A stretch of 64,000 nt of DNA, taken from the NCBI GenBank assembly GCA_041661005.1, contig JBAZVG010000001.1, forward strand, positions 735,515 to 799,514, given 5' to 3'. The stretch is from Minisyncoccota bacterium (GTDB taxonomy: Bacteria; Patescibacteriota; Minisyncoccia; Phycocordibacterales; UBA9973). The notes below the pieces were generated by a model. It was not told where the DNA came from, ran no database searches, and saw only the letters and a program-made list of their open reading frames with translations. The translations under genes were made by a program, and so were the position numbers. The first letter of the stretch is position 1, and each line of letters starts with the position of its first letter. Below are positions 5,510 to 50,826 of this stretch, in pieces.

Positions 5510-6090
5510 TGCACCACATTTATCACACAGAGGGAATAATATTGAGTAGCCGAAATTTTGGGGAAGCGGGGAAATATTATAGTGTTTTTACTCGTGATTT
5601 GGGGATGATTCATGCTTCCGCTCAGGGGGTGCGAAAAATGTCTTCAAAATTGCGTTTTGTGTTGCAAGATTTTTCTTATCTCAAGATTGATTTAGTCCAA
5701 GGCAAAAATATTTTTCGAATAACGAACGCGTCAAAGACAAACACACTTGAGCGCATCACCAGACAGCCTGAAAACTTTAAAGTCTTTGCGAATGTCGCGC
5801 GTTTATTGAAACGCTTGTTGGCCGGTGTCGAACCAAATGAAACTTTGTTCACAGATTTAGTGAATGGTTTGTTAATTTTAGAAAAGGCAAAGACTAAAGA
5901 AGATCTGAGCAACATCGAAGTAATCATAGTTCTGCGCATATTAAACAATCTAGGATATATCGGTGACAATGAAATATTGCAGAATCTTATAAAGTCTCCT
6001 TTCGAGGAAGATTTGATATTCGAAGTTTCGAAATCGAGAATTCATGTGTTACGTCAGATAAATAAAGCGCTCAAAGAGACGCATTTGTAA
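5509..6090 (+). CDS. recO: DNA repair protein RecO-like (short)
   Basis: The N-terminal OB-fold pattern 'EGIILSSRNFGEAGKYYSVFTRDLGMIHASAQGVRK' matches the RecO N-terminus. The start codon overlaps the upstream stop. Confidence 0.5.
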   Translation: MHHIYHTEGIILSSRNFGEAGKYYSVFTRDLGMIHASAQGVRKMSSKLRFVLQDFSYLKIDLVQGKNIFRITNASKTNTLERITRQPENFKVFANVARLLKRLLAGVEPNETLFTDLVNGLLILEKAKTKEDLSNIEVIIVLRILNNLGYIGDNEILQNLIKSPFEEDLIFEVSKSRIHVLRQINKALKETHL

Positions 6091-10892: not shown

Positions 10893-11324
10893 ATGCAAAA
10901 AGGAGTTGATTATATTGGAATTTCTGTTGTTTATTTTTGTCACGACGGCAATGGAAAGGTTTTATTAGCAAAAAGAAGTAAAAATGCTAGAGATGAGCAA
11001 GGCAATTGGGATATTGGTGGAGGTGGGGTAGAGTTTGGCGATACTGTCGTTAATACTTTAAAAAAAGAAATTAAAGAAGAATATTGTGCAGATGTTTTGG
11101 ATTATGAATTTCTTGGATACCGAGATGTGCACAGAGAACATAATGGCAAAAAAACCCATTGGATTACACTTGATTTCAAGGTGCTCATTGATAAAGAGAA
11201 AGTAAAAAATGGTGAGCCACACAAGTTTGATGCTGTTGAATGGTTTACACTAGAAAATCTACCTACCCCAATTCATTCTCAACTGCCAAATTTTTTAGAA
11301 AAATATAAAGATAATATTAAATGA
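10893..11324 (+). CDS. NUDIX hydrolase
   Basis: A Nudix box 'GGGVEFGDTVVNTLKKEIKEEYC' (Gx5Ex7REUxEExGU-like) is present. Confidence 0.75.
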   Translation: MQKGVDYIGISVVYFCHDGNGKVLLAKRSKNARDEQGNWDIGGGGVEFGDTVVNTLKKEIKEEYCADVLDYEFLGYRDVHREHNGKKTHWITLDFKVLIDKEKVKNGEPHKFDAVEWFTLENLPTPIHSQLPNFLEKYKDNIK

Positions 11325-17995: not shown

Positions 17996-19093
17996 TTACG
18001 CTTCTTCCGCAAATTTTTTAGATATCTCTTTTAAGATTTTGTCTGCGATTTTTTTGTCTTCCTTCAAAAACTTACGTGTTGCATCGTATCCTACGCCCAG
18101 TTTCGTTTTTTCTTTCCCTTCACCCTCCTCTGCAAAGAAATATGAATTTCCAGTTTTTTCTATTATTTTGAATTTCTCCCCGAGCGCCATTATCTCGCCC
18201 TCTTTTGAAATGCCTTCATTGTAAATAATGTCAAATTCCGTTTGTTTGAACGGGGCAGCGACTTTATTTTTCACTATTTTTACACGAGTGCGTGAGCCCA
18301 CGACTTCTTCTCCTTTTTTGATTTGGGCGATTTTACGAATATCCAGACGCACAGAAGTGTAGAATTTTAAAGCCTTACCTCCTGGAGTAGTTTCTGGATT
18401 GCCGAACATTACTCCGATTTGCATTCTGATTTGGTTTATAAAGATGACGACAGTTTTACTTCTAGCGACGATGGCTGTGAGCTTGCGAAGCGCCTGAGAC
18501 ATCAAGCGGGCTTGCTTGCCTACATGATATGCGCCCATGTCGCCCTCGATCTCGTCTTTTGGGGTGAGTGCCGCCACAGAGTCGACGACGATGACGTCAA
18601 TCTTGCCTGTTCGCACCAGAGACTCTACGATCTCGAGCGCCTGTTCGCCATTGTCTGGCTGGGATATAAGCAAATTGTTTATATTGACTCCGAGCTTTTT
18701 AGTATATTCTGGATCCATGGCATGTTCAGCATCTATATACGCGCAGACACCTCCGAGTTTTTGCGCTTCCGCTACGATGTGGAGCGAAAGGGTGGTCTTT
18801 CCAGAAGATTCAGGTCCAAATATTTCAATAATTCTTCCTCGCGGTATTCCGCCGACTCCGAGCGCCATATCTAGGCCGATAGAGCCGGTAGGGATGACGT
18901 TGACGTCCACTTTCGGCGAATCGCCAAATTTCATTATTGATCCCTCGCCAAATTTTGTTTGGATTGCTTTTAAAGTGTCTTCTAGCACAGCTATCCCCAA
19001 AGTTTTGTCTTCTTTCTTGTCTTTTTTCTTTTGCATGATTTTCTTTAGAATCAAAAAACTCTTTCTTGGCATAAGTTTCCGCTCAACACGCAT
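17996..19093 (-). CDS. recA: recombinase RecA
   Basis: Walker A '[10 protein letters not shown]', '[11 protein letters not shown]' and loop L2 '[20 protein letters not shown]' are present. The 5' end (first ~13 codons) lies inside an inverted repeat; the true start may be an internal Met. Confidence 0.9.
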
Positions 19094-19170
19094 AATTTTC
19101 TGCTGAAAATTTGCTATGCTCGGCTACCCGCCTGCGCAATGTTTCTCAGAAACTACGCCTGCGACGAGTT
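19054..19170. repeat. left arm of a ~115-bp inverted repeat (recA leader and first codons)
   Basis: Its reverse complement is about 93% identical to 21935-22052. Confidence 0.8.
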
Positions 19171-19535
19171 TATTGATTCTGATTACTCTCGTATATTAAC
19201 TTATAATTCTTCTCATCAATATATCCAAATTTGTCTTTGGCTGTTATATTAATAACATTATACCCCGGAAGTAGGGCTATTGTCTCGTTGAAATCACCGG
19301 CTTGATTTACTGATATTTCTCGACCATTTAAGACTAGATTTATGGCATTCTGCGCATTGCCTGTTATCTCAATGACACTATTTTCAACCCTTGTGCCGTC
19401 AGATATGTTCACGTTCTTTATTTTCACCCCAAAGATCAAATTATGAGAACCCCAAAAAGCATAGATAACAAGAAAAAGGAAAAAGATGACAAGCGCGCTG
19501 GTTTGTAATATTTTTTTAGATAACGTTTTCTCCAT
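19170..19535 (-). CDS. hypothetical membrane-anchored protein
   Basis: It lies downstream of ftsK on the same strand, has an N-terminal TM helix, and the likely start is an internal Met. Confidence 0.4.
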   Translation of the reverse strand: MEKTLSKKILQTSALVIFFLFLVIYAFWGSHNLIFGVKIKNVNISDGTRVENSVIEITGNAQNAINLVLNGREISVNQAGDFNETIALLPGYNVINITAKDKFGYIDEKNYKLIYESNQNQ

Positions 19536-21747
19536 TCTCGTTGCGGTTAATTTTTTCCAGCACCTCTCTCGGTTTGGCGCCATCTCCCGGTCCTATTATT
19601 CCACGTTCTTCTAGTTTATCCATCAAACGAGCCGCGCGCGCGTAGCCTAATTTTAATTTTCTTTGCAAGTAAGAAGTTGATGCTTTGCCGGCTTCGATCA
19701 CGCACAGTCTGGCTTCCTCATACATTTCATCATCATCGTCCGCATCTTCATCTTCAAGTGTGCTTTCAAAGATGCTTTTATCAGCCGATATAGATCCTGA
19801 AGTCAGCGTTATTTCTCCCAATATCTCGTCTTTATACGCATCCGCTAAATAGTTGACGACTTTTTTAACTTCCACCTCCGAAATGAATGCGCTCTGCAAA
19901 CGTTCTGGTTGAGCGTCGCCCGAGGAATACAGCATGTCGCCGGCACCCAAGAGCTTTTCAGCTCCGCCAGCATCGAGAATAGTGCGTGAATCTACCTGCG
20001 AGGACACCTTTAATGCGACACGGGCGGGGATGTTTGCCTTGATTAGCCCAGTGATGACGTTTACTTCCGGACGTTGTGTAGAGAGTATGAGGTGTATACC
20101 CACAGCTCTCGACATCTGCGCCAGACGGACGATAGCGGATTCGAGTTCTCGCGGATAGGAGCTCATTATATCTGCCAGTTCGTCTATAATGATGACTATA
20201 TAAGGCAAGCGGTCGATATTTGTCTCCTCAGTAGAGGTGCCGTCTTCGTTTGTTTTAGCCTTGCTCTTTACTTTGCCAAAGACGTTATTGTGATAAGATT
20301 CTATGTCTCGTACTGATTCTGCTTCTAATATGTCATAACGGCGGTCCATCTCTTTGGCCGCCCATTTTAGAGCCAGAATTGTCTTTTTAGCCTCAGTTAT
20401 TACCGGGGTCAACAAGTGTGGAATGTTGTTATACAGGGTTAGTTCTACACGTTTTGGATCGATCAATATAAATTTTAAATCATCCGGTCCGTTTCTGTAT
20501 AGAAGGGAAGTAATCATAGAATGAATAGTAACTGACTTTCCAGAACCAGTCGTGCCGGCGACGAGACAATGAGGCATTTTGGCGAGGTTGCCGAACACTG
20601 ATCTGCCTCCGATGTTGCGACCGAGGGCGATAGTAAGTGGTTTAGGAGAATTTCGAAACTTATCGTCGGAAAGGAGAGTAGCGAGGCCGACTAGAGATTT
20701 TGTTTTATTTGGAATTTCGATGCCGACTAGAGATTTTCCTGGAATCGGCGCTTCTATACGTATAGGATGCGCGGCGAGCGCGAGCGATAGATCATTTTGC
20801 AGGGCAATAATGCGCGACAGTTTCATCCCTTCTGCTGGTTTGAGCGCGTAACGTGTGACCGTCGGTCCGATTGTTATTTCATCCATCTCCACTTCAATGC
20901 CGAAGTTTAATAGCGTGCGTTTTATAATATTTGCATTAGCTTTTATGTCGCCAGTGTTCGGCTTGCCTTGATCTTCTTCTAATAGAGAGATGGGAGGGGG
21001 GATATAGGTGGAGATTAGTCCACTCCTTCTTGTTTTGATTGGCATCTCTTCCTCTTCTTCTTTTTTATCTATACCTAGCGCTTTTTTAATTTTTTCTTTA
21101 GCGCTTTCTTTTTCTCCCGATTCTTCCTCTTCTTCAGGCTCAGGTTCCTCGATCTCCGATTCTTTTGAAGAATTTTCTGCAGGGACACTTAGAGTATCAT
21201 CGAGGGGTTTTTTTCTTGTTATCAAGTCCCAGATTTTTTTAATAAACGGACTGAGGTCTGGTTTTGTATCAAACATCGCCAGGATGGAAATTATTAAAAT
21301 TGCTCCGAGGAAGATGGTGCTGGCATATACATCAAATAAGGAGACGAAAGGTGTCGATAAAATTTCTCCCAATAATCCGCCTGCATGCCTATATACTCCC
21401 GCAGAGTTTACACCTGAAGCAATGTCGATTATTCCCAGACTCGAAAGCAGAAACATTACCCCGCTCCCCATACTTCTCCATCCGATGTTTGGAGTTTCGG
21501 ATTTGATAAATGAGATTCCAAGTAAAATAAAAAGAGCGGGCAGGAGGATATCGCCAATGCCGAGCAAGAGGTGAAGTTTTTCATTTACAAAGACACCCGC
21601 AACTCCAGCCATGCTGAATTTGGACATTAAAAAAAATAACGCAAAAACAAAAAAAACTATTGCTAAAATTCCGTATTTAGTTTGAGTTTTTAGTCCTAAA
21701 GAATTTTCTTTCTCGTCATCTTTTTTCTTATTTGCATTTTTCGCCAT
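19516..21747 (-). CDS. ftsK: DNA translocase FtsK/SpoIIIE
   Basis: The domain order is N-terminal TM helices, an acidic linker, a motor with Walker A 'GTTGSGKS', and a C-terminal gamma winged-helix domain 'TSYLQRKLKLGYARAARLMDKLEERGII'. Confidence 0.9.
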   Translation of the reverse strand: MAKNANKKKDDEKENSLGLKTQTKYGILAIVFFVFALFFLMSKFSMAGVAGVFVNEKLHLLLGIGDILLPALFILLGISFIKSETPNIGWRSMGSGVMFLLSSLGIIDIASGVNSAGVYRHAGGLLGEILSTPFVSLFDVYASTIFLGAILIISILAMFDTKPDLSPFIKKIWDLITRKKPLDDTLSVPAENSSKESEIEEPEPEEEEESGEKESAKEKIKKALGIDKKEEEEEMPIKTRRSGLISTYIPPPISLLEEDQGKPNTGDIKANANIIKRTLLNFGIEVEMDEITIGPTVTRYALKPAEGMKLSRIIALQNDLSLALAAHPIRIEAPIPGKSLVGIEIPNKTKSLVGLATLLSDDKFRNSPKPLTIALGRNIGGRSVFGNLAKMPHCLVAGTTGSGKSVTIHSMITSLLYRNGPDDLKFILIDPKRVELTLYNNIPHLLTPVITEAKKTILALKWAAKEMDRRYDILEAESVRDIESYHNNVFGKVKSKAKTNEDGTSTEETNIDRLPYIVIIIDELADIMSSYPRELESAIVRLAQMSRAVGIHLILSTQRPEVNVITGLIKANIPARVALKVSSQVDSRTILDAGGAEKLLGAGDMLYSSGDAQPERLQSAFISEVEVKKVVNYLADAYKDEILGEITLTSGSISADKSIFESTLEDEDADDDDEMYEEARLCVIEAGKASTSYLQRKLKLGYARAARLMDKLEERGIIGPGDGAKPREVLEKINRNENGENVI

Positions 21748-21799
21748 ATAGTTATTCTAACATATTCAACGATTTTTGAAACTCTTCATCGGCACTAAC

Positions 21800-21935
21800 T
21801 CTTCTCCGGTACGGATTTTTTTAAGCTTAAAAAATCCTGCCTAGCCCGTGCTGGTACGGCCAAGGGAAGTTTTCGCGCCGTCGCGCTCAAAACCCCTGCG
21901 AAGAGTTGTGCCTCAACGAGTTTCATAATTTAAAA
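21800..21935 (+). repeat. repeat family X copy 1 (hairpin GGATTTTTT-AAGCTT-AAAAAATCC element)
   Basis: The 'ccggtacggattttttaagcttaaaaaatcctg...aaacccctgcgaagagttgt' motif is shared with the copies at 47221 and 48727. This copy has an internal insertion. Confidence 0.7.
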
Positions 21936-22052
21936 AACTCGTCGCAGGCGTAGTTTACAAGAGACATTGCGCAGGCTGGCGAGCCGAGCATAGCAAATTT
22001 TCAGCAGAAAATTATGCGTGTCGATTGGAAACTTATGCCAAGAAAGAGTTTT
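21935..22052. repeat. right arm of the ~115-bp inverted repeat
   Basis: It is the reverse complement of 19054-19170. It includes a duplicated 'atgcgtgt..cttatgccaagaaagagtttt' recA-like start. Confidence 0.8.
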
Positions 22053-22133
22053 TTAAAAAAATATGCCCTTGCCTTTTTCTACGTCCGACCCACCTAGACT
22101 TGCGTCTACGCGAGGCTGGTATATAATGGACAT

Positions 22134-23012
22134 ATGTTATCCATGAATAAGGACATGAATAAAAACCTCAAAGACTCCGAAGGAAAGCTCTCGGCTTCCT
22201 ACTCGCCTCGCTTACGCTCCGGCGAAGCGGGCGAGGAAGGCAACTATTCCATGTCCGTTATGAGTTATACAAAAACTCAGAAACTCATTACAGCTTTGTA
22301 TATGGTAACGGACGTAATGGACAACGAAGAGCCAATAAGAAATAAATTAAGGACATTGGGGACAGAAATAGTATCAGACTCCTCGACTACGCTCGGGGCA
22401 AACATGTCCATTAGAAGAATAGAGCAAATAATGTCCTTTTTAGATATTGCTTCTGCTATGAATTTTATCTCTGAAATGAATTGTGCTGTTTTGAAAAAAG
22501 AATTTTTTGGACTAAAAATGTCTCTGCAAGAATCAATGCAAGTAAAGCCAGTGTGGCTCGAAGAATTTTTAAATTCTCCTCTTGAGGAGTACTCCGACAT
22601 GGGGTCGGAGGGAGGTGGAAAGAATTTATCCACCCCGGCCTTTGGCCACCCCTCAAGAGGGGAATCAAAACACAAGGGATATTCTAACGGACATCAAACA
22701 AGTACCAGAATTGGTGTCCAAAAGGGAAGTACTCTTATGCAAGCCCTGGGAGAGATAAAAATGTCCGATAGAAGTCCTTTTGATATGAAAAATGATTTTT
22801 ATGTTCTTAAGAAACAAAGACGAGATGAAATAATAAATACTGTAAAGACAAATCCAAATGGTACTACTATAACGGACATTAAAACAAGAGCCACTGGGGT
22901 ACTTGTTTCTTGTAGTGAAAAGACACTGCAGAGAGAATTGGTGTCCATGACGAAAGATGGTGTCCTTAATAAAACAGGGGAGAAACGTTGGACTCGATAT
23001 TTCGTTAAATAA
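22134..23012 (+). CDS. hypothetical protein with a C-terminal winged-helix-like region; carries an in-frame copy of repeat family Y
   Basis: The 292-aa ORF has a C-terminal 'TITDIKTRATGVLVSCSEKTLQRELVSMTKDGVLNKTGEKRWTRYFV' region that resembles a wHTH. The internal GC-rich element at 22575-22662 is translated as NSPLEEYSDMGSEGGGKNLSTPAFGHPSRGES. Confidence 0.45.
   Translation: MLSMNKDMNKNLKDSEGKLSASYSPRLRSGEAGEEGNYSMSVMSYTKTQKLITALYMVTDVMDNEEPIRNKLRTLGTEIVSDSSTTLGANMSIRRIEQIMSFLDIASAMNFISEMNCAVLKKEFFGLKMSLQESMQVKPVWLEEFLNSPLEEYSDMGSEGGGKNLSTPAFGHPSRGESKHKGYSNGHQTSTRIGVQKGSTLMQALGEIKMSDRSPFDMKNDFYVLKKQRRDEIINTVKTNPNGTTITDIKTRATGVLVSCSEKTLQRELVSMTKDGVLNKTGEKRWTRYFVK
22575..22662. repeat. repeat family Y copy A (TIR-bounded ~90-bp GC-rich element, inside CDS)
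   Basis: It has terminal inverted repeats 'ctcctcttgaggagtac ... ccacccctcaagagggg', plus internal ggtgga/tccacc and ccgac/gtcgg hairpins. Confidence 0.75.
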
Positions 23013-23020
23013 TCCCTTAT

Positions 23021-23115
23021 TGAGCCTATTCTCCTCTTGAGGAGTACCCCGACTTTGGTCGGGGAGAGGTGGAATATCCACCCCGTCTCGCAAGCGAGCC
23101 ACCCCTCAAGAGGGG
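23021..23115. repeat. repeat family Y copy B
   Basis: It shares the TIRs and internal hairpins of copy A and lies immediately after the stop of ORF 22134-23012. Confidence 0.75.
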
Positions 23116-23548
23116 GATAAAGGGGGTTGCAATTTGCATTTTAACTCAAATATGATAGTATTGATATGTGGGTTATATCCCGCCGTTGGCGGGATCCTCA
23201 AATTCTATAGGCGCTTTTGCTTCTTAGAATTTGGGAGTTATCCACATAGTATGTTGCTCTACTATGGAGCTATGTATTATAATATTTTAGTTAGTATATT
23301 TGTTTTCTTTTTGTCGTCGCTTTTTATTTCGTCGAAAAAATTCTAAGCGAAGCTTTGAGAAAATAAATGCCCATTGAAAACTGAATAGCTATGTTTTTAA
23401 TGGTTTAGTTTACATCTGTTCGCCATTTGATTATTTGCCACATTATTAATTATTATTATTTATTGGCGAAGAAAAAATAGCGATAGAAAAAAATACGCTT
23501 TTAGTTTTGTCGAAACTTATTAATGGCGTAAAAGTTAGAAAAAAATTT

Positions 23549-25561
23549 ATGAGTAATTTATTAAAATCAAAATTCCTTCTTGGAGTTATGACTGTTGCGA
23601 TCATGTTCGTAGGCGCAGTTGCAGTTGCAACTACAGCTTCCGCTGACTGTACGGTCACTCCTACAGTAAAAGTTGGTTCTACGGGTGTGAACGTACAATG
23701 CGTTCAGACTATAGTAGGAGCAACAGCAGACGGTAGTTTTGGTCCTTTGACCAAAGCTGCAGTTATGGCTTGGCAATCAGGTCACAACTTGACCGCTGAC
23801 GGAGTAGTTGGCCCTATGACCGCTACTGCAATGAATAGCGGATCAACCAGTGCTAATCTCCCAGCAGGATGTCAAACTGGTGACTTGTTTAGTGGAACAA
23901 CCGGACTTTCATGTTCTGGAGGTTCTTCTAATCTTCCAGCAGGATGTCAAACTGGCGACTTGTTTAGTGGAACAACCGGACTTTCATGTTCTGGTGGTTC
24001 AACACCTTCAACACCTTCAAACACTGGTCCTCTAGTGGGAACAGACGGAACAATTTCTGACATTAATCAACTTTCTTCTTTTAACAATGAAGAAGTTGGT
24101 GATGGTGCAAACGATGTTAAAGTTATGGGATTTGATCTTGTGACTTCAAATGATGGAGATGTCGCTGTTAAATCAATCAAATTGACTTTTGATGGTGCAG
24201 ACAGTTCAGGTTCAACTCGTGTTGCTGATTATCTAGATTCTGTTAAAATCCTTATGGGTTCAACAGAAGTTGGAGTAGCAGATATGTCTGATTTCAACAA
24301 AGATAGTACAGGAGTATATTCAAAGACCATCACTCTTAGTGGTGCAGTCCTAAGAGCTGATACTACTACAAAGTTTTATGTAGCAGTTGATGCAGTATCA
24401 AATCTTGATTCAGGAGATATTGCGACAACAGCTGATAACTGGGAAGTAGGTATTAACAATATCCGTTATGAAGATGGATCAGGAGTTGTAACAACTGAAT
24501 CTGATTTAATGCCAGCTGCTATTGAATATAATTCAACAGGAGATGGTGTAAATATTTCATTTGTTTCTTACTCAACTTCAGCTGATACTGAACTTAAGAT
24601 TTCCTTAAACAGTACTCCAGTTGCACAAGTTGTTAAAGTAAGTGCTACAGCAGATTCTGTTTCACCGCTTGTTATCTTAAAGGGTAAATTAAAATTGGAA
24701 GGTACGTCTGACGTTTTGTTAGATTCATTCCCAATTTTGTTTACTACTACTGAATCAGATCTTGTTGAAGTAACACCAACTGTATATCTTACACTTGGAA
24801 CAGAAGAATTTTCAGAGTCAGTAACAGGAGGTGCTTCAACAGAGACAGTTGCTTTTGACAATCTTGATTACACCATTGATGCTGGTTCAACTGTAAACTT
24901 CACTGTTTCCGTAGATCTAAATGATATACAATCTTCAACATTTGATGAAGGAACAACTTTGAAGGCAGAGTTAACAACCACACTTCGTGATGGTGCAAGC
25001 TTTGTTGCTGAAAATGCACAAGGTGATGCCTTGGTAGATGCGACAGAAAAAACTGGTTCTGCTCTAGGTGAAGTTCAGACATTCCGTTCTACAGGTATCA
25101 ATGTTGTATTAGTAGGTACCACTGCCGATGTGGCAAAGGGACTTACTACTGCTCCAGATGTTGGAACATATACAATTACATTTGATGTAACTGCATTTGG
25201 TGCTGATATGTATATTGATGGTACTAAGCCAACTCTAACAGGCGAAGATTCAACCACTTTGACTATCAATGATCCTGGTACATCTACTCAAACTGCAGTT
25301 ATAACTTCACCAACAGGTGCAACTATGACTGGAACAGTAGATACTACTTCTAGATTCTTAGTCACAGAAGGTGAAACTGAAAGATTTACTATTACTTCTA
25401 TAGTTACTCCTACTGTTACAGGTGGACTAACTGCTGTATCACTCACAAGTCTTGCTTACGATGATGCTGATATAGATCTAGTAGATGCTACAAATATAGA
25501 ATACACAACAAATCTTACTCAGTTCATTACATCATACAAAAACTTGGTGTTAACAAACTAG
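23549..25561 (+). CDS. secreted Thr/Ser-rich surface protein with a peptidoglycan-binding (PG_binding_1-like) domain and Cys-containing tandem repeats
   Basis: It has a signal peptide/TM 'FLLGVMTVAIMFVGAVAVATTASA' and a PG-binding-like 'DGSFGPLTKAAVMAWQSGHNLTADGVVGPMT'. A 2 x 25-aa repeat 'NLPAGCQTGDLFSGTTGLSCSGGS' follows, then a long beta-rich T/S/D/V region. Confidence 0.6.
   Translation: MSNLLKSKFLLGVMTVAIMFVGAVAVATTASADCTVTPTVKVGSTGVNVQCVQTIVGATADGSFGPLTKAAVMAWQSGHNLTADGVVGPMTATAMNSGSTSANLPAGCQTGDLFSGTTGLSCSGGSSNLPAGCQTGDLFSGTTGLSCSGGSTPSTPSNTGPLVGTDGTISDINQLSSFNNEEVGDGANDVKVMGFDLVTSNDGDVAVKSIKLTFDGADSSGSTRVADYLDSVKILMGSTEVGVADMSDFNKDSTGVYSKTITLSGAVLRADTTTKFYVAVDAVSNLDSGDIATTADNWEVGINNIRYEDGSGVVTTESDLMPAAIEYNSTGDGVNISFVSYSTSADTELKISLNSTPVAQVVKVSATADSVSPLVILKGKLKLEGTSDVLLDSFPILFTTTESDLVEVTPTVYLTLGTEEFSESVTGGASTETVAFDNLDYTIDAGSTVNFTVSVDLNDIQSSTFDEGTTLKAELTTTLRDGASFVAENAQGDALVDATEKTGSALGEVQTFRSTGINVVLVGTTADVAKGLTTAPDVGTYTITFDVTAFGADMYIDGTKPTLTGEDSTTLTINDPGTSTQTAVITSPTGATMTGTVDTTSRFLVTEGETERFTITSIVTPTVTGGLTAVSLTSLAYDDADIDLVDATNIEYTTNLTQFITSYKNLVLTN
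23860..24009 (+). repeat. 2 x 75-bp tandem coding repeat
   Basis: The two units are near-identical and in-frame within the surface protein gene. Confidence 0.8.
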
Positions 25562-45930: not shown

Positions 45931-47208
45931 ATGCCAAATATGAAATACGAAATTAAAGATATAAGCTTGGCAGACAGGGGGTTGATCAAAATTGAATGGG
46001 CGGGCAAAGATATGCCGGTGCTTGCTGGTATTAGGGATACTTTCAAGAAATCAAAACCATTTAAAAATCTCACCATTGGAGCTTGTTTGCATGTTACAGC
46101 AGAGACAGCTAATTTGATGATTGCCCTAAAAGAAGCTGGCGCGGAAGTTTCGCTTTGCGCTTCAAATCCTCTTTCCACCCAAGATGACGTGGCGGCGGCT
46201 TTGGTAAAAAAATTTAACATTTCTGTCTTCGCTAAAAAAGGCGAGAGCAAAGAAGAATATTTTTCACACCTAAAAGCGGTGCTCGATACAAACCCAGATA
46301 TGACTATGGATGATGGCGCTGATCTAGTCGGGGAGTTGCATTCTTTGCGTCTTGATCAAGCTAAAAAAATACTTGGCGGAACGGAGGAGACCACTACCGG
46401 TGTTACTCGGCTAAAATCAATGGCAAAAGAGGGGAAACTTCTTTTCCCGGTTATTGCAGTAAATGATTCTATGACCAAGCATTTCTTTGATAACCGTTAT
46501 GGCACTGGCCAATCTACACTAGACGGTATAATTCGCGCTACGAATAAATTGATCGCTGGCTCGGTGTTTGTCGTCGCGGGATATGGATGGTGTGGAAAGG
46601 GGCTGGCGATGCGCGCTCGCGGGATGGGAGCGAATGTCATAGTTACTGAGATTGACGCTGTCAAAGCGCTCGAAGCGTTGATGGATGGATTTCGGGTTAT
46701 GCCGATGGTGCAGGCAGCTCGTGAGGCTGATTTTATTTGCACTGTCACTGGGAACACCAGTGTCGTGGGATTGGATGCATTTAAGGTTATCAAAGACGGA
46801 TGTATAATTTCTAATTCCGGACATTTTGATGTGGAGATCGATCTTGTCGCGCTTCAGAAGATTACCAAGACTAGAAAAGTCTTACGCGATTTCGTTGAAA
46901 GCTACCAGATAAAAATCGGGAAAAATGAAAAGACCGTGTTTGTGTTGGCTGGCGGGAGATTAGTAAATTTGGGTAGCGCTGAAGGGCATCCAGCTTCGGT
47001 GATGGATATGAGTTTTGCCAATCAAATATTGTCAGCGGAATTTGTGTTAAAGAATAAGGGTAAACTCTCTAATTCAGTTCATACATTGCCCGAAATTCTT
47101 GATAGAAAAATTGCTATTTTGAAATTAAAAAGCTTGGGAGCAAAAATAGATACTTTATCAAAAAAACAAACAGAATATATGGCTGGTTGGAAGGAAGGCA
47201 CAAATTAA
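45931..47208 (+). CDS. ahcY: S-adenosyl-L-homocysteine hydrolase
   Basis: 'KDISLADRG...IEWA...MP.L', 'CLHVTAETANL' and an NAD-binding 'VVAGYGWCGKGLA' are present. Confidence 0.85.
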   Translation: MPNMKYEIKDISLADRGLIKIEWAGKDMPVLAGIRDTFKKSKPFKNLTIGACLHVTAETANLMIALKEAGAEVSLCASNPLSTQDDVAAALVKKFNISVFAKKGESKEEYFSHLKAVLDTNPDMTMDDGADLVGELHSLRLDQAKKILGGTEETTTGVTRLKSMAKEGKLLFPVIAVNDSMTKHFFDNRYGTGQSTLDGIIRATNKLIAGSVFVVAGYGWCGKGLAMRARGMGANVIVTEIDAVKALEALMDGFRVMPMVQAAREADFICTVTGNTSVVGLDAFKVIKDGCIISNSGHFDVEIDLVALQKITKTRKVLRDFVESYQIKIGKNEKTVFVLAGGRLVNLGSAEGHPASVMDMSFANQILSAEFVLKNKGKLSNSVHTLPEILDRKIAILKLKSLGAKIDTLSKKQTEYMAGWKEGTN

Positions 47209-47220
47209 TTTAGGTATAAC

Positions 47221-47305
47221 TTTTTTCCGGTACGGATTTTTTGAAGCTTAAAAAATCCTGAAGTTCTCGGCTCGTCAGCCTCGAAACCCCTACAAAAAGT
47301 TTACC
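47221..47305 (+). repeat. repeat family X copy 2
   Basis: It is near-identical to copy 3 at 48727-48815. Confidence 0.8.
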
Positions 47306-47332
47306 TCAATTAATTTCTTTATTTTAAATTAT

Positions 47333-48496: not shown

Positions 48497-48642
48497 AATA
48501 TATCAAGAGTGGCGACGATCCTCCTTCGTAAAACTACGGACGGAGAACGAGAATTGGCTCGTATGACTCGCCCAGCAACCTTTTTAAACAAGGTGCTAAA
48601 TCCAACCAAGTGCTGATGAATCAGCACGAGGAAAGATAAGTA
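48497..48642 (+). ncRNA. candidate SAM-I (S-box) riboswitch in the metK leader
   Basis: Ordered consensus blocks are present: 'TATCAAGAG.GGC', 'CAGCAACC', 'GGTGCTAAATCC', a P4-like hairpin gtgctga/tcagcac, then 'GAAAGATAAG' closing P1 against the 5' 'CTTATC'-like strand. Confidence 0.55.
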
Positions 48643-48692: not shown

Positions 48693-48726
48693 TAATGGTA
48701 GATTACGAAATTCACAAAAATACGAA

Positions 48727-48815
48727 CTTTTTTTCGGTACGGATTTTTTGAAGCTTAAAAAATCCTGAAGTTCTCGGCTCGTCAGCCTCGAAACCCCTTC
48801 AAAAAGTTGTATTTT
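48727..48815 (+). repeat. repeat family X copy 3 (between riboswitch and metK start)
   Basis: The sequence is 'cggtacggattttttgaagcttaaaaaatcctgaagttctcggctcgtcagcctcgaaaccccttcaaaaagttg'. Confidence 0.8.
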
Positions 48816-48846
48816 AGCGAATTTCGTAATTCACAGAGTAAAATAT

Positions 48847-49971: not shown

Positions 49972-50826
49972 TTGGTGTATACTATATGTATGTTTAAAAA
50001 ACTACTTCTATTTTCGATTATCTTAGGAATCTATTTTGTAGCAAATAGCGCATTTGCTACTGTCGGCGGACCGACTTATATTTCTGAGATCGCTTTTAGT
50101 GCTGTTAATAATTCTATCTATTACAAAGTGCATGATGGAGGTGGCAGGGGGTGCCCGCCGATTATCCACCGGATTGATTTAGTTACTCTCAAAGATTCGG
50201 AAGTGAAATCATGCAATCAAGTGGAGCGAGAATTTCCATATAGTGAAACAAACACACAAAAGTATAACCAATTTATCGCAGATACTTATGAGAGTCTTTC
50301 TTATCTCGGAAGTGTCAGTCTAAAAAAGAATAATATCGATGTTCAGGTTGAATTTCTATCCGAAAATAAATTAGAAGGAGAAGATAATTGGATTATTTCG
50401 CGCAATTTTCGCGCGACCATCACTCAAGATGATAAAGAAATTGGCGCAATAAATTTTAAGGGGTGTGATAAAGATCAGCCACATGTTTTCGAAGGATATA
50501 TGATTCCAAATTCTGATAAAATGGCTATGTTAATTTCTAACAAAGGAGATTGTTTTGAAGGTGGATATTTAGGGGAAAGTTTACATATTGTGAAAGGTGT
50601 AAAATATTATGATAAAAATATAGTGAGAGGTTTTAAACAAGCATCAGCAACAGAACCGAATATGGGTAATGTCGTGGTGTATGCTGGGGTGGCTAATAAT
50701 CCAGAGCGGGAAGCACCAGCACCTGGAGAGGCTACTACCCCTAATAAAAATAGTAACTATATTCTATATATTATAGTGATTGCTCTAGGATTAGGACTAG
50801 GGTATTTCTTTGGAAGAAAAAGATAG
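49972..50826 (+). CDS. hypothetical secreted protein with C-terminal membrane anchor
   Basis: It has an N-terminal signal/TM and a C-terminal 'YILYIIVIALGLGLGYFFGRKR' TM plus basic tail. Confidence 0.4.
   Translation: MVYTICMFKKLLLFSIILGIYFVANSAFATVGGPTYISEIAFSAVNNSIYYKVHDGGGRGCPPIIHRIDLVTLKDSEVKSCNQVEREFPYSETNTQKYNQFIADTYESLSYLGSVSLKKNNIDVQVEFLSENKLEGEDNWIISRNFRATITQDDKEIGAINFKGCDKDQPHVFEGYMIPNSDKMAMLISNKGDCFEGGYLGESLHIVKGVKYYDKNIVRGFKQASATEPNMGNVVVYAGVANNPEREAPAPGEATTPNKNSNYILYIIVIALGLGLGYFFGRKR

Follow-up and report, generated by a model that had tools for sequence, protein, structure and literature searches.

Inverted repeats around ftsK in a Minisyncoccota genome are probably copies of a structured family resembling miniature inverted-repeat transposable elements

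We analysed a 64,000-nucleotide stretch of DNA (hereafter the window) from a Minisyncoccota bacterium of the Patescibacteriota (NCBI GenBank assembly GCA_041661005.1, contig JBAZVG010000001.1, positions 735,515 to 799,514 of the forward strand), in which recA, a small membrane open reading frame (ORF), and ftsK are encoded on the minus strand and ORF22134 on the plus strand (Table 1), and in which ftsK is flanked by an inverted repeat whose origin is the subject here. This repeat had been claimed in an initial annotation, and a repeat search of the window, alignment, and shuffles indicated that it is real, with coordinates that needed a shift of just 1–4 nt. The two arms (A on the left and B on the right) are inverted copies of ~122–126 nt with 91–93% identity. 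Positions 19053–19125 pair with 21982–22054 (73 nt, 96% complementary) and positions 19127–19174 pair with 21932–21979 (48 nt, 88% complementary), and a same-sense alignment of the arms joins both blocks into a single ~122-nt inverted repeat with one 1-nt indel, in which the differences between A and B are few and compensatory. An exact 40-mer and an exact 22-mer each occur twice in the window, once per arm, where shuffles lead one to expect 0.00 occurrences. As the initial annotation described, ftsK and the small ORF lie between the arms, with which the domain scan agreed, and its statement that no site-specific recombinase is encoded nearby also stood, as the domain scan of the ORFs from 13.7 to 27.9 kb gave neither recombinase nor transposase domains.

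The left arm had been read as the recA leader plus the first 13 codons of the gene, and this was not borne out. The first ATG of the recA frame (19093) does lie inside the left arm, but nine recA homologues from related genomes (89–94% identical to the window protein) all begin at the methionine that corresponds to residue 20 of the long ORF, with the common start motif M-x-KKK-x-KKEDKT. This alignment places the true recA start at ATG 19036, which serves as the start in all 10 aligned genomes and lies 14 nt beyond the element, so that arm A holds no recA codons; judged from the same alignment, the 13-residue peptide of the left arm and its truncated right-hand twin are translated non-coding repeat. 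Arm A is thus sited between the stop of the 137-aa ORF (19170) and the corrected recA start, and arm B in the divergent ftsK/ORF22134 spacer, upstream of the putative ORF22134 promoter. The small ORF, which is kept between recA and ftsK in relatives by synteny, probably starts at a later methionine at 19535 (ORF length 121–137 aa).

Table 1. Coordinates of the genes, putative promoter elements, and element copies in the window
Feature	Position	Strand	Evidence and remarks
recA, corrected start, 346 aa	17996-19036	-	Pfam RecA, E 1e-136; nine homologues aligned at the N terminus
Copy A (left arm), type-1 core	19050-19175	-	130.4 bits, E 1e-27 (cmsearch); fold -52.1 kcal/mol, z -7.0
Small membrane ORF, listed length 137 aa	19170-19583	-	ORF list; weak Glucodextran_B match; synteny
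ftsK, 743 aa	19516-21747	-	Pfam FtsK_SpoIIIE, alpha, gamma, and 4TM domains
Putative extended -10 of ftsK, TGTTAGAAT	21754-21762	-	6 nt before ATG; inferred promoter
Copy C, type-2 core plus extra hairpin	21773-21927	-	51.1 bits, E 2.5e-9 (opposite strand 18.8 bits); fold -59.7 kcal/mol, z -4.95
Copy B (right arm), type-1 core	21931-22057	+	140.4 bits, E 5e-30 (cmsearch); fold -48.0 kcal/mol, z -5.4
Putative ORF22134 promoter, TTGCGT, 16-nt spacer, TATAAT	22100-22127	+	ends 6 nt before ATG 22134; inferred
ORF22134, 292 aa, conserved protein of a Paceibacterota-specific family	22134-23012	+	1145 homologues; neighbour of the element, not part of it
Copy D, type-2 core	47196-47320	-	47.3 bits, E 1.9e-8 (cmsearch); folded
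Copy E, type-2 core	48702-48828	-	58.8 bits, E 4e-11 (cmsearch); fold -47.8 kcal/mol, z -7.1

The arms are members of a larger family. With the ORF22134 protein family as anchor, we collected loci from different species of Nomurabacteria/Paceibacterota, 80 in all, and blastn found the element in many of them. A covariance model was built from 10 copies, whose consensus fold contained 43 pairs (22 of them already doubly compensatory), and it returned 110 matches from the window and the 80 related loci, or 92 distinct copies after echoes on the opposite strand were dropped. A further 101 copies came from 80 metagenome loci, which had been picked by the pattern of one core variant (type 2) to remove the bias of anchoring on ORF22134 and were then searched with the model. 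With all filters off, the model located five copies in the window (A–E), of which A and B carry a type-1 core and C, D, and E a type-2 core (GGGGUUUCGAGGCUGACGAGCCGAGAACUUCAGGAUUUUUUAAGCUUCAAAAAAUCCGUACC), the cores of D and E having only 2 differences in ~82 positions. Copy C stands back-to-back with B at a gap of 3 nt, with its end 26 nt upstream of the start of ftsK; copy D fills the spacer between ahcY and an ATPase gene, where it runs over the stop codon of ahcY and reads antisense to both neighbours; copy E lies 18 nt upstream of the metK ATG (48847) and is antisense to metK.

Members of the family are ~115–160 nt long and have no coding capacity, the sole ORF through arm A being the spurious N-terminal extension of recA. 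Each is a long imperfect palindrome whose halves are terminal inverted repeats that form stems P1 and P2, and the whole folds into a long stem closing on a conserved, T-shaped three-way junction, the core, which comprises two hairpins, one G+C-rich with tandem G-A residues in its internal loop and one A+U-rich with a loop of AGCW. Over 109 distinct rows, paired cells made up 94.3% compared with 60.0% in shuffles, compensatory changes were found at all 43 of the 43 modelled pairs, and the covariation score was 0.68 compared with 0.08–0.14 when partners were slid by 1–3 columns. One hairpin (P5) has entirely different sequences among copies with its pairing kept. The core of ~60 nt hardly varies from genome to genome, the nucleotides of its loops and junction being conserved and the closing stems variable, and fold z-scores across copies ranged from -3.6 to -9.4. 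In L040 (the L numbers denote individual loci) one copy has an additional hairpin, and L190 likewise has a hairpin insertion of variable length at a helix tip. For arms A and B, the strand reading towards the downstream gene is the better folder, the opposite strands being weaker by ~11 kcal/mol. Hairpins made of the outer modules without a core were also seen, namely L081:1631-1690 (P1, a GTCGAAGG/CCAAGAAAG internal loop, and P2) and L017:3524-3617 (a long perfect stem), which could be deletion derivatives or a hairpin that cores insert into.

Known families did not account for the fold. Rfam 15 gave only rRNAs above the gathering threshold in the window and no family for any of the element subtypes, and at E-values up to 10 it placed only spurious snoRNA or miRNA-like matches over the elements; a scan for tRNA and tmRNA gave no match. 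By eye, the core was not a convincing match to any of the hammerhead, twister, SRP, 6S, Y RNA, and K-turn motifs. The element had no match among IMG/VR viral contigs, PLSDB plasmids, or INPHARED phages, and in the literature searched for the core string and for transposable elements of this kind or structured RNAs in the Candidate Phyla Radiation/Patescibacteria we found nothing relevant.

Mobility is indicated by a young subfamily, in which five copies are identical from TGAATTACGAAACTCG to GAGTTTCGTAATTCA and the flanks beyond are unrelated. The ends of this subfamily (TGAATTACGAAACTC and GAGTTTCGTAATTCA) are perfect 15-nt terminal inverted repeats with an imperfect continuation to ~38 nt through P1 and P2. 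Direct repeats of at least 6 bp abut the ends of 7 of its 13 distinct insertions, and six of these seven are perfect 7-mers (TTGGTAA, TCTTTAA, TATTATA, TATACAA, TCAAAAC, and ATAAAAA), whereas re-paired flanks as a control gave a mean of 0.5 and a maximum of 4 in 2000 trials. Two copies 5.5 kb apart in one locus (L120:5434 and L120:10932) are 100% identical, and two at separate sites of contig Ga0155365_110 (L083:2519 and L156:5056) are 99–100% identical. Empty sites were apparent in alignments as well: L087, L170, and L138 lack the L083 insertion, and the L190 insertion is missing from L164 and L118 and stands in the opposite orientation in L107. [quoted passage not shown] The arms can be placed in the same family as the young subfamily because a type-1 copy in L148 has the same termini, as does copy E (GAATTACGAAATTC...GAATTTCGTAATC), and arm A has a diverged yet recognisable version of them (AGAATCAATAAACTCG...GAGTTTTTTGATTCT). 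We therefore consider it likely that the arms are copies A and B of a MITE-like, non-coding, hairpin-forming transposable family of the intergenic DNA of Nomurabacteria/Paceibacterota.

The interior of young-subfamily elements, including the core, was found in both orientations relative to the non-identical outermost 4–5 nt (TCGTG vs CTTTG), a flip/flop arrangement that occurs even between 100% identical copies in one genome (L120:5420-5565 and 10918-11062; also in L083, L156, L162, L179, and L057). The pattern points to a hairpin intermediate or to inversion by way of the long terminal repeats.

The distribution of the family was examined in both sets of loci. Gene order is conserved in the 80 genomes (S18/SSB on the plus strand; efp, recA, the small ORF, and ftsK all on the minus strand; ORF22134 on the plus strand), and elements can be present in any of these spacers, varying by genome and in both orientations. 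The recA/small-ORF spacer that holds copy A was occupied in 5/73 relatives (median length 150 nt when occupied and 35.5 nt when empty) and empty in the other 68; the small-ORF/ftsK spacer was occupied in 3/75 (154 and 1.5 nt), the efp/recA spacer in 7/50 (159 and 100 nt), and the ftsK/ORF22134 spacer in 42/78 (243.5 and 185 nt). The last figure bears on the right-hand copy, whose absence from related genomes, along with a single orientation in all reads, would, according to the initial annotation, have pointed to a recent local duplication remnant; a family member is in fact present in that spacer in more than half of the relatives. In the ftsK/ORF22134 spacers of L014, L025, L077, L079, L045, L068, L036, L046, and L040 (~5700-5990 per locus) we saw further distinct palindromic families, CTAG-rich long hairpins and G+C-rich ones among them. 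Such families fill the spacer in genomes that lack the three-way-junction family, and the spacer appears to be a general sink for palindromic insertions.

The ftsK/ORF22134 spacer held 24 copies pointing towards ftsK and 22 towards ORF22134. In the first set, 50 copies lay in divergent and 13 in convergent spacers, and those in tandem spacers comprised 9 sense and 15 antisense copies; in the metagenome set, 57 lay in tandem (17 sense, 40 antisense), 12 in convergent, and 9 in divergent spacers, mirroring a background of 376, 78, and 73. Elements of the metagenome set typically fill their spacers: the median distance was -4 nt from the stop upstream and +15 nt from the following start, and many overlap the stop codon of the upstream gene. 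The family of the arms was seen in intergenic DNA only, next to unrelated housekeeping genes (map, rsmH, mraZ, rpsT, miaA, pnp, ftsZ, rny, uvrB, ruvC, an xerC-like gene, and others), and the window elements adjoin recA, ftsK, ahcY, and metK. This is not the pattern of a cis-regulatory leader, as orientation is random relative to the genes and the neighbours share no functional theme. We also looked for a conserved dedicated promoter upstream of the elements and found none.

The arms of the window resemble each other more than they resemble anything else: A and B are mutual best matches at an identity of 0.91, compared with at most 0.87 to any copy from another genome. One relative, L006, has the same A/B-like arrangement, and its pair is 0.95 identical, while each window arm is closer to the other than to the L006 copy at the equivalent position. 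Such likeness within a genome indicates that the arms were copied locally, lineage by lineage, or that gene conversion has homogenised an old pair, and it suggests exchange between the arms. We propose that the elements would be mobilised in trans by a transposase that makes 7-bp target-site duplications, that they would land in short spacers in either orientation, and that they would tend to pile up around efp-recA-ftsK-ORF22134. Copy A would have been inserted or copied into the recA/small-ORF spacer, which normally measures ~35 nt, and copy B would have arisen in the ftsK/ORF22134 spacer, which collects palindromic elements of several unrelated families; the two may since have been kept alike through local copying or gene conversion, so that the 122-bp inverted repeat around ftsK would be a by-product. 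Once an element has inserted, its core sequence and the pairing in all of its stems would be kept, which could reflect selection on a single-stranded fold (RNA or single-stranded DNA) or palindrome-correcting replication, and the elements may additionally act as structures embedded in transcripts.

Several observations weigh against such an origin. Family-wide, target-site duplications were found at 15 of 190 copies where 9.3 ± 3.0 were expected, which is not significant, and around A and B none was detectable, so that direct proof of transposition rests on one young subfamily. A search of ~1.5 Mb of loci for matching end pairs 400–4000 bp apart gave none except two adjacent MITEs, and the ORF domain scan described above found no transposase near the arms. 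A and B have only the interior 122 nt in common, without the outermost terminal repeats (in the alignment with A, copy B lacks the outermost part), which fits gene conversion better than clean transposition. Conservation is also the reverse of that in a classical MITE, as the inner core is most conserved and the outer stems are often copy-specific yet paired. Furthermore, G-U pairs outnumbered A-C mismatches by 161:22 on one strand, and by 102:15 in the variable outer stems, and the sense strand of the model was the stabler RNA in 85/92 and 97/101 copies, whatever the gene orientation; this G-U excess and the single stabler strand suggest a strand-specific functional fold, which simple selfish DNA does not predict.

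In an alternative reading, the elements are primarily functional structured RNAs with secondary or merely apparent mobility, and A and B would represent two paralogous RNA genes or modules, one next to recA and the other next to ORF22134. Such an RNA might bind a protein, cleave itself as a ribozyme, work in trans as a small RNA, or serve in cis as a new module for processing, stability, or termination. Very strong covariation in every helix, including two internal hairpins that terminal repeats leave unexplained, would be accounted for in this way, as would the nearly invariant core with its conserved loop and junction nucleotides, the G-U over A-C asymmetry with one strand consistently stabler, the low fold z-scores, and the helix-tip insertions of L040 and L190, which are typical of structured RNAs. 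We nevertheless think it unlikely, given that orientation is independent of the genes in the home spacer and in the tandem spacers of both sets, that there is neither room nor a conserved sign for an own promoter where B and C are 3 nt apart and elements fill whole spacers, that neighbouring genes share no functional theme, that Rfam has no matching family, and that terminal repeats, target-site duplications, identical copies, and empty sites speak for mobility. A related idea, doubtful at present, combines both aspects: internal-hairpin covariation, the near-invariant 60-nt core, the strand-specific G-U excess, and the lack of a match to a known RNA family could mean that the T-shaped core is a new class of functional single-stranded fold that a mobile element of Patescibacteria carries or that itself spreads as one. 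It may be an RNA module (self-cleaving, protein-binding, or an RNase III/processing signal) that rewires operon expression where it is inserted, or it may be a single-stranded DNA hairpin that is a transposition or replication intermediate, with which the flip/flop isomers of the interior are consistent.

The remaining explanations take the repeat as a device of this locus or as an ordinary transcript end. If RecA mediated a crossover between A and B, the 2.8-kb ftsK segment would be inverted and the expression of recA, ftsK, or ORF22134 could change. Such an inversion is physically possible, as the 122-bp arms with their exact 40-nt identity are in principle long enough for homologous recombination, arms more alike within than between genomes (window and L006) suggest ongoing exchange, and ftsK appears to have its own putative promoter inside the segment, so that inversion could be tolerated. 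A recombination switch is nonetheless very unlikely: the synteny comparison that the initial annotation proposed gave a single orientation, with ftsK divergent from ORF22134 in 78/78 relatives with both genes, including L006 with the same repeat pair; no invertase was found in the 13.7–27.9 kb scan; and the same elements occur singly across the genome, which makes the pairing look incidental. The uniform gene order is weak evidence against population-level polymorphism, since almost no relative has the repeat pair. Look-ups with exact proteins (recA, the small ORF, and ftsK, with several starts) for contigs with the alternative junction returned none on record. The only further contig with an identical ORF22134 (L001; Logan SRR18595301_2526095, 1103 nt) starts at position 68 of arm B, where the arms become identical, as expected of an assembly break at a repeat.

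Ordinary intrinsic terminators, possibly bidirectional, or REP-like extragenic palindromes at transcript ends would fit the A-run and T-run that flank the closing stem (AAAAAACTC...GAGTTTTTT), the overlap of many copies with upstream stop codons, and the 13 convergent-spacer copies of the first set. We consider them highly improbable, because the T-run is paired within the stem and does not trail it, copies lie in divergent promoter spacers (50 in the first set and 9 in the second) and, inside apparent operons, a median of 15 nt before the next start, spacer-type usage equals the background, a length of 115–145 nt with a conserved three-way junction far exceeds the 20–40 nt of REPs, and terminal repeats with target-site duplications indicate insertion. 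A scan for sigma-70 promoters and terminators from 18.9 to 22.3 kb remained at chance level. Hardly credible is a duplicated recA promoter or leader, or a DNA-damage operator common to recA and ORF22134, although each arm points to a downstream gene (A to recA, B to ORF22134) and the C-terminal winged helix of ORF22134 could make it a regulator. The duplication suggested in the initial annotation holds insofar as the arms are truly copies of each other, but what was copied is not recA promoter, leader, or coding DNA, as recA begins after the element and its supposed first 13 codons are not conserved coding DNA. An element precedes recA in only 5/73 relatives, and in L036 and L046 it is reversed relative to the window copy. 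The suggestion of a LexA-type operator or shared regulatory module beside ORF22134 likewise found no support: searches with two common LexA consensus sequences (CTGT-N8-ACAG and CGAAC-N4-GTTCG) gave 0 SOS boxes in 19050-19175 or 21931-22057 even with 1–2 mismatches, with window-wide counts at chance level, the putative ORF22134 promoter lies downstream of B, and identical or related elements stand beside unrelated genes elsewhere.

The layouts of the putative promoters of the two genes next to copies B and C recur in relatives. The motif TGTTAAAAT was repeatedly found before ftsK, and TTGnnn...TATATAATGGAC before ORF22134 homologues, where the apparently conserved pattern is TTGnnn, ~17 nt, and TATATAAT-GGAC, followed by the ATG, all downstream of the element. 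Since both putative promoters sit between element and gene, the spacer elements would not be leaders of these genes. In relatives, a near-palindrome (GTCC-N10-GGAC) spans the -10 box of the ORF22134 promoter, a placement that suggests autoregulation. The AlphaFold model of ORF22134 has an N-terminal four-helix bundle (residues 39-135, pLDDT ~90), a disordered linker, and the C-terminal winged helix; neither Pfam nor NCBIfam had a family model that matched the protein, and the best Foldseek matches of the bundle, weak at E 1e-3 to 0.1, were S23-ribosomal/23S-IVS proteins (2gsc, 2rld) and the diversity-generating retroelement accessory protein Avd (4dwl, 8ub7_B). That ORF22134 might be the cognate protein of the element was considered, given how frequently the ftsK/ORF22134 spacer is filled, and is unsupported, as genomes without the family fill the spacer with other palindromes and the element is common far from the gene.

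Known structured repeats provide close parallels to a MITE-like family of this kind. Correia elements of Neisseria, enterobacterial ERIC/IRU, and pneumococcal RUP and BOX are bacterial MITEs that form long structured hairpins in transcripts. The present family resembles them in a size of ~100–150 nt without coding capacity, in terminal inverted repeats through which the entire element folds as one hairpin, in presumably tens of intergenic copies per genome in both orientations, in presence/absence polymorphism and, in the young subfamily, target-site duplication, and in presumably frequent co-transcription with flanking genes. It differs in that its host has an ultra-small Patescibacteria genome with very short spacers, in that no parent insertion sequence turned up in the ~1.5 Mb of loci, in that its most conserved part is not the termini but the internal three-way-junction core with covarying hairpins, and, with respect to Correia elements, in a 7-bp duplication instead of the TA associated with those. 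REP sequences and BIMEs with their RAYT (Y1) transposases are similar as dispersed extragenic palindromes with one strand favoured for folding, in the adjacency of inverted copies such as B and C, and in the GTAG found in some copies (GGCGTAGTTT in type 1). However, REPs are simple hairpins of 20–40 nt without target-site duplications, whereas the elements here have 115–160 nt, a three-way junction, long terminal repeats, and, in the young subfamily, 7-bp duplications, and the GTAG tag is missing from type-2 cores and hence not conserved across subtypes. Rickettsia palindromic elements (RPEs) are also structured palindromic repeats in a reduced genome, but the family of the arms is intergenic only and has no sequence relationship to them. 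The inverted terminal repeats of adeno-associated virus, the T-shaped, flip/flop termini of a parvovirus, offer a structural analogy only: they too are hairpins of ~125–145 nt with a long stem on two small internal hairpins, and their flip/flop recalls the young-subfamily interior, which lies in both orientations relative to slightly asymmetric outermost 4–5 nt, while the elements here are chromosomal and interspersed, with target-site duplications, rather than genome termini, and come with neither a Rep/nickase gene nor evidence of hairpin-primed replication.

A second, unrelated family of structured palindromes of ~95 nt (ATTCTCCTCTTGAGGAG...CCTCAAGAGGGGAAT) was observed at 22573-22668, in frame within the disordered linker of ORF22134, at 23028-23121, just after the ORF22134 stop, and from 50851, after ORF 49972-50826. 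It folds into a closing stem around three small hairpins, with compensatory differences between copies and z-scores of -5.8 and -4.1, and its motif fills the ftsK/ORF22134 spacer in L007, L020, and L048. The in-frame copy inside the ORF22134 coding sequence is RPE-like behaviour, and, judging from the protein alignment of ORF22134, this family probably explains the variable 'PLEEY...SRGE' inserts there.

Other features were noted in the window around copies D and E and elsewhere. Upstream of metK, at 48497-48642 (+), lies a sub-threshold match to the SAM-I riboswitch (RF00162; 32.1 bits vs a gathering threshold of 44.4, E 7.6e-5), and copy E sits between this SAM-I-like aptamer and the metK start as a mobile hairpin embedded in a putatively riboswitch-controlled leader. 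Between ahcY and metK, the segment 47333-48417 encodes a NadR-like P-loop ATPase and a RelB/RelE-type toxin-antitoxin pair and is bracketed by copies D and E in direct orientation; it could be a small inserted island. At 23853-24000, two tandem 75-bp units (96% identical) in a 684-aa PG_binding_1 gene encode a repeated NLPAGCQTGDLFSGTTGLSCSGGS.

For annotation, the result corrects a trap, as both the long recA ORF and the seemingly duplicated start of recA are artefacts of a repeat. The class of element is ordinary, that of a structured bacterial MITE-like repeat, while the host is unexpected and the core unusually conserved and covarying. The covariance model, together with the terminal-repeat and duplication signature, makes the family searchable, and the conserved three-way-junction core is a candidate for biochemistry. 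Streamlined Patescibacteria genomes of less than 1 Mb are usually deemed to hold little mobile DNA; structured palindromic mini-elements of at least two families are present in them, where they fill whole intergenic spacers and, in one family, lie in frame inside a gene. Such repeats break assemblies, as in L001, offer inversion and gene conversion a substrate near essential genes such as recA and ftsK, and put strong hairpins into operons and putatively riboswitch-controlled leaders such as that of metK.

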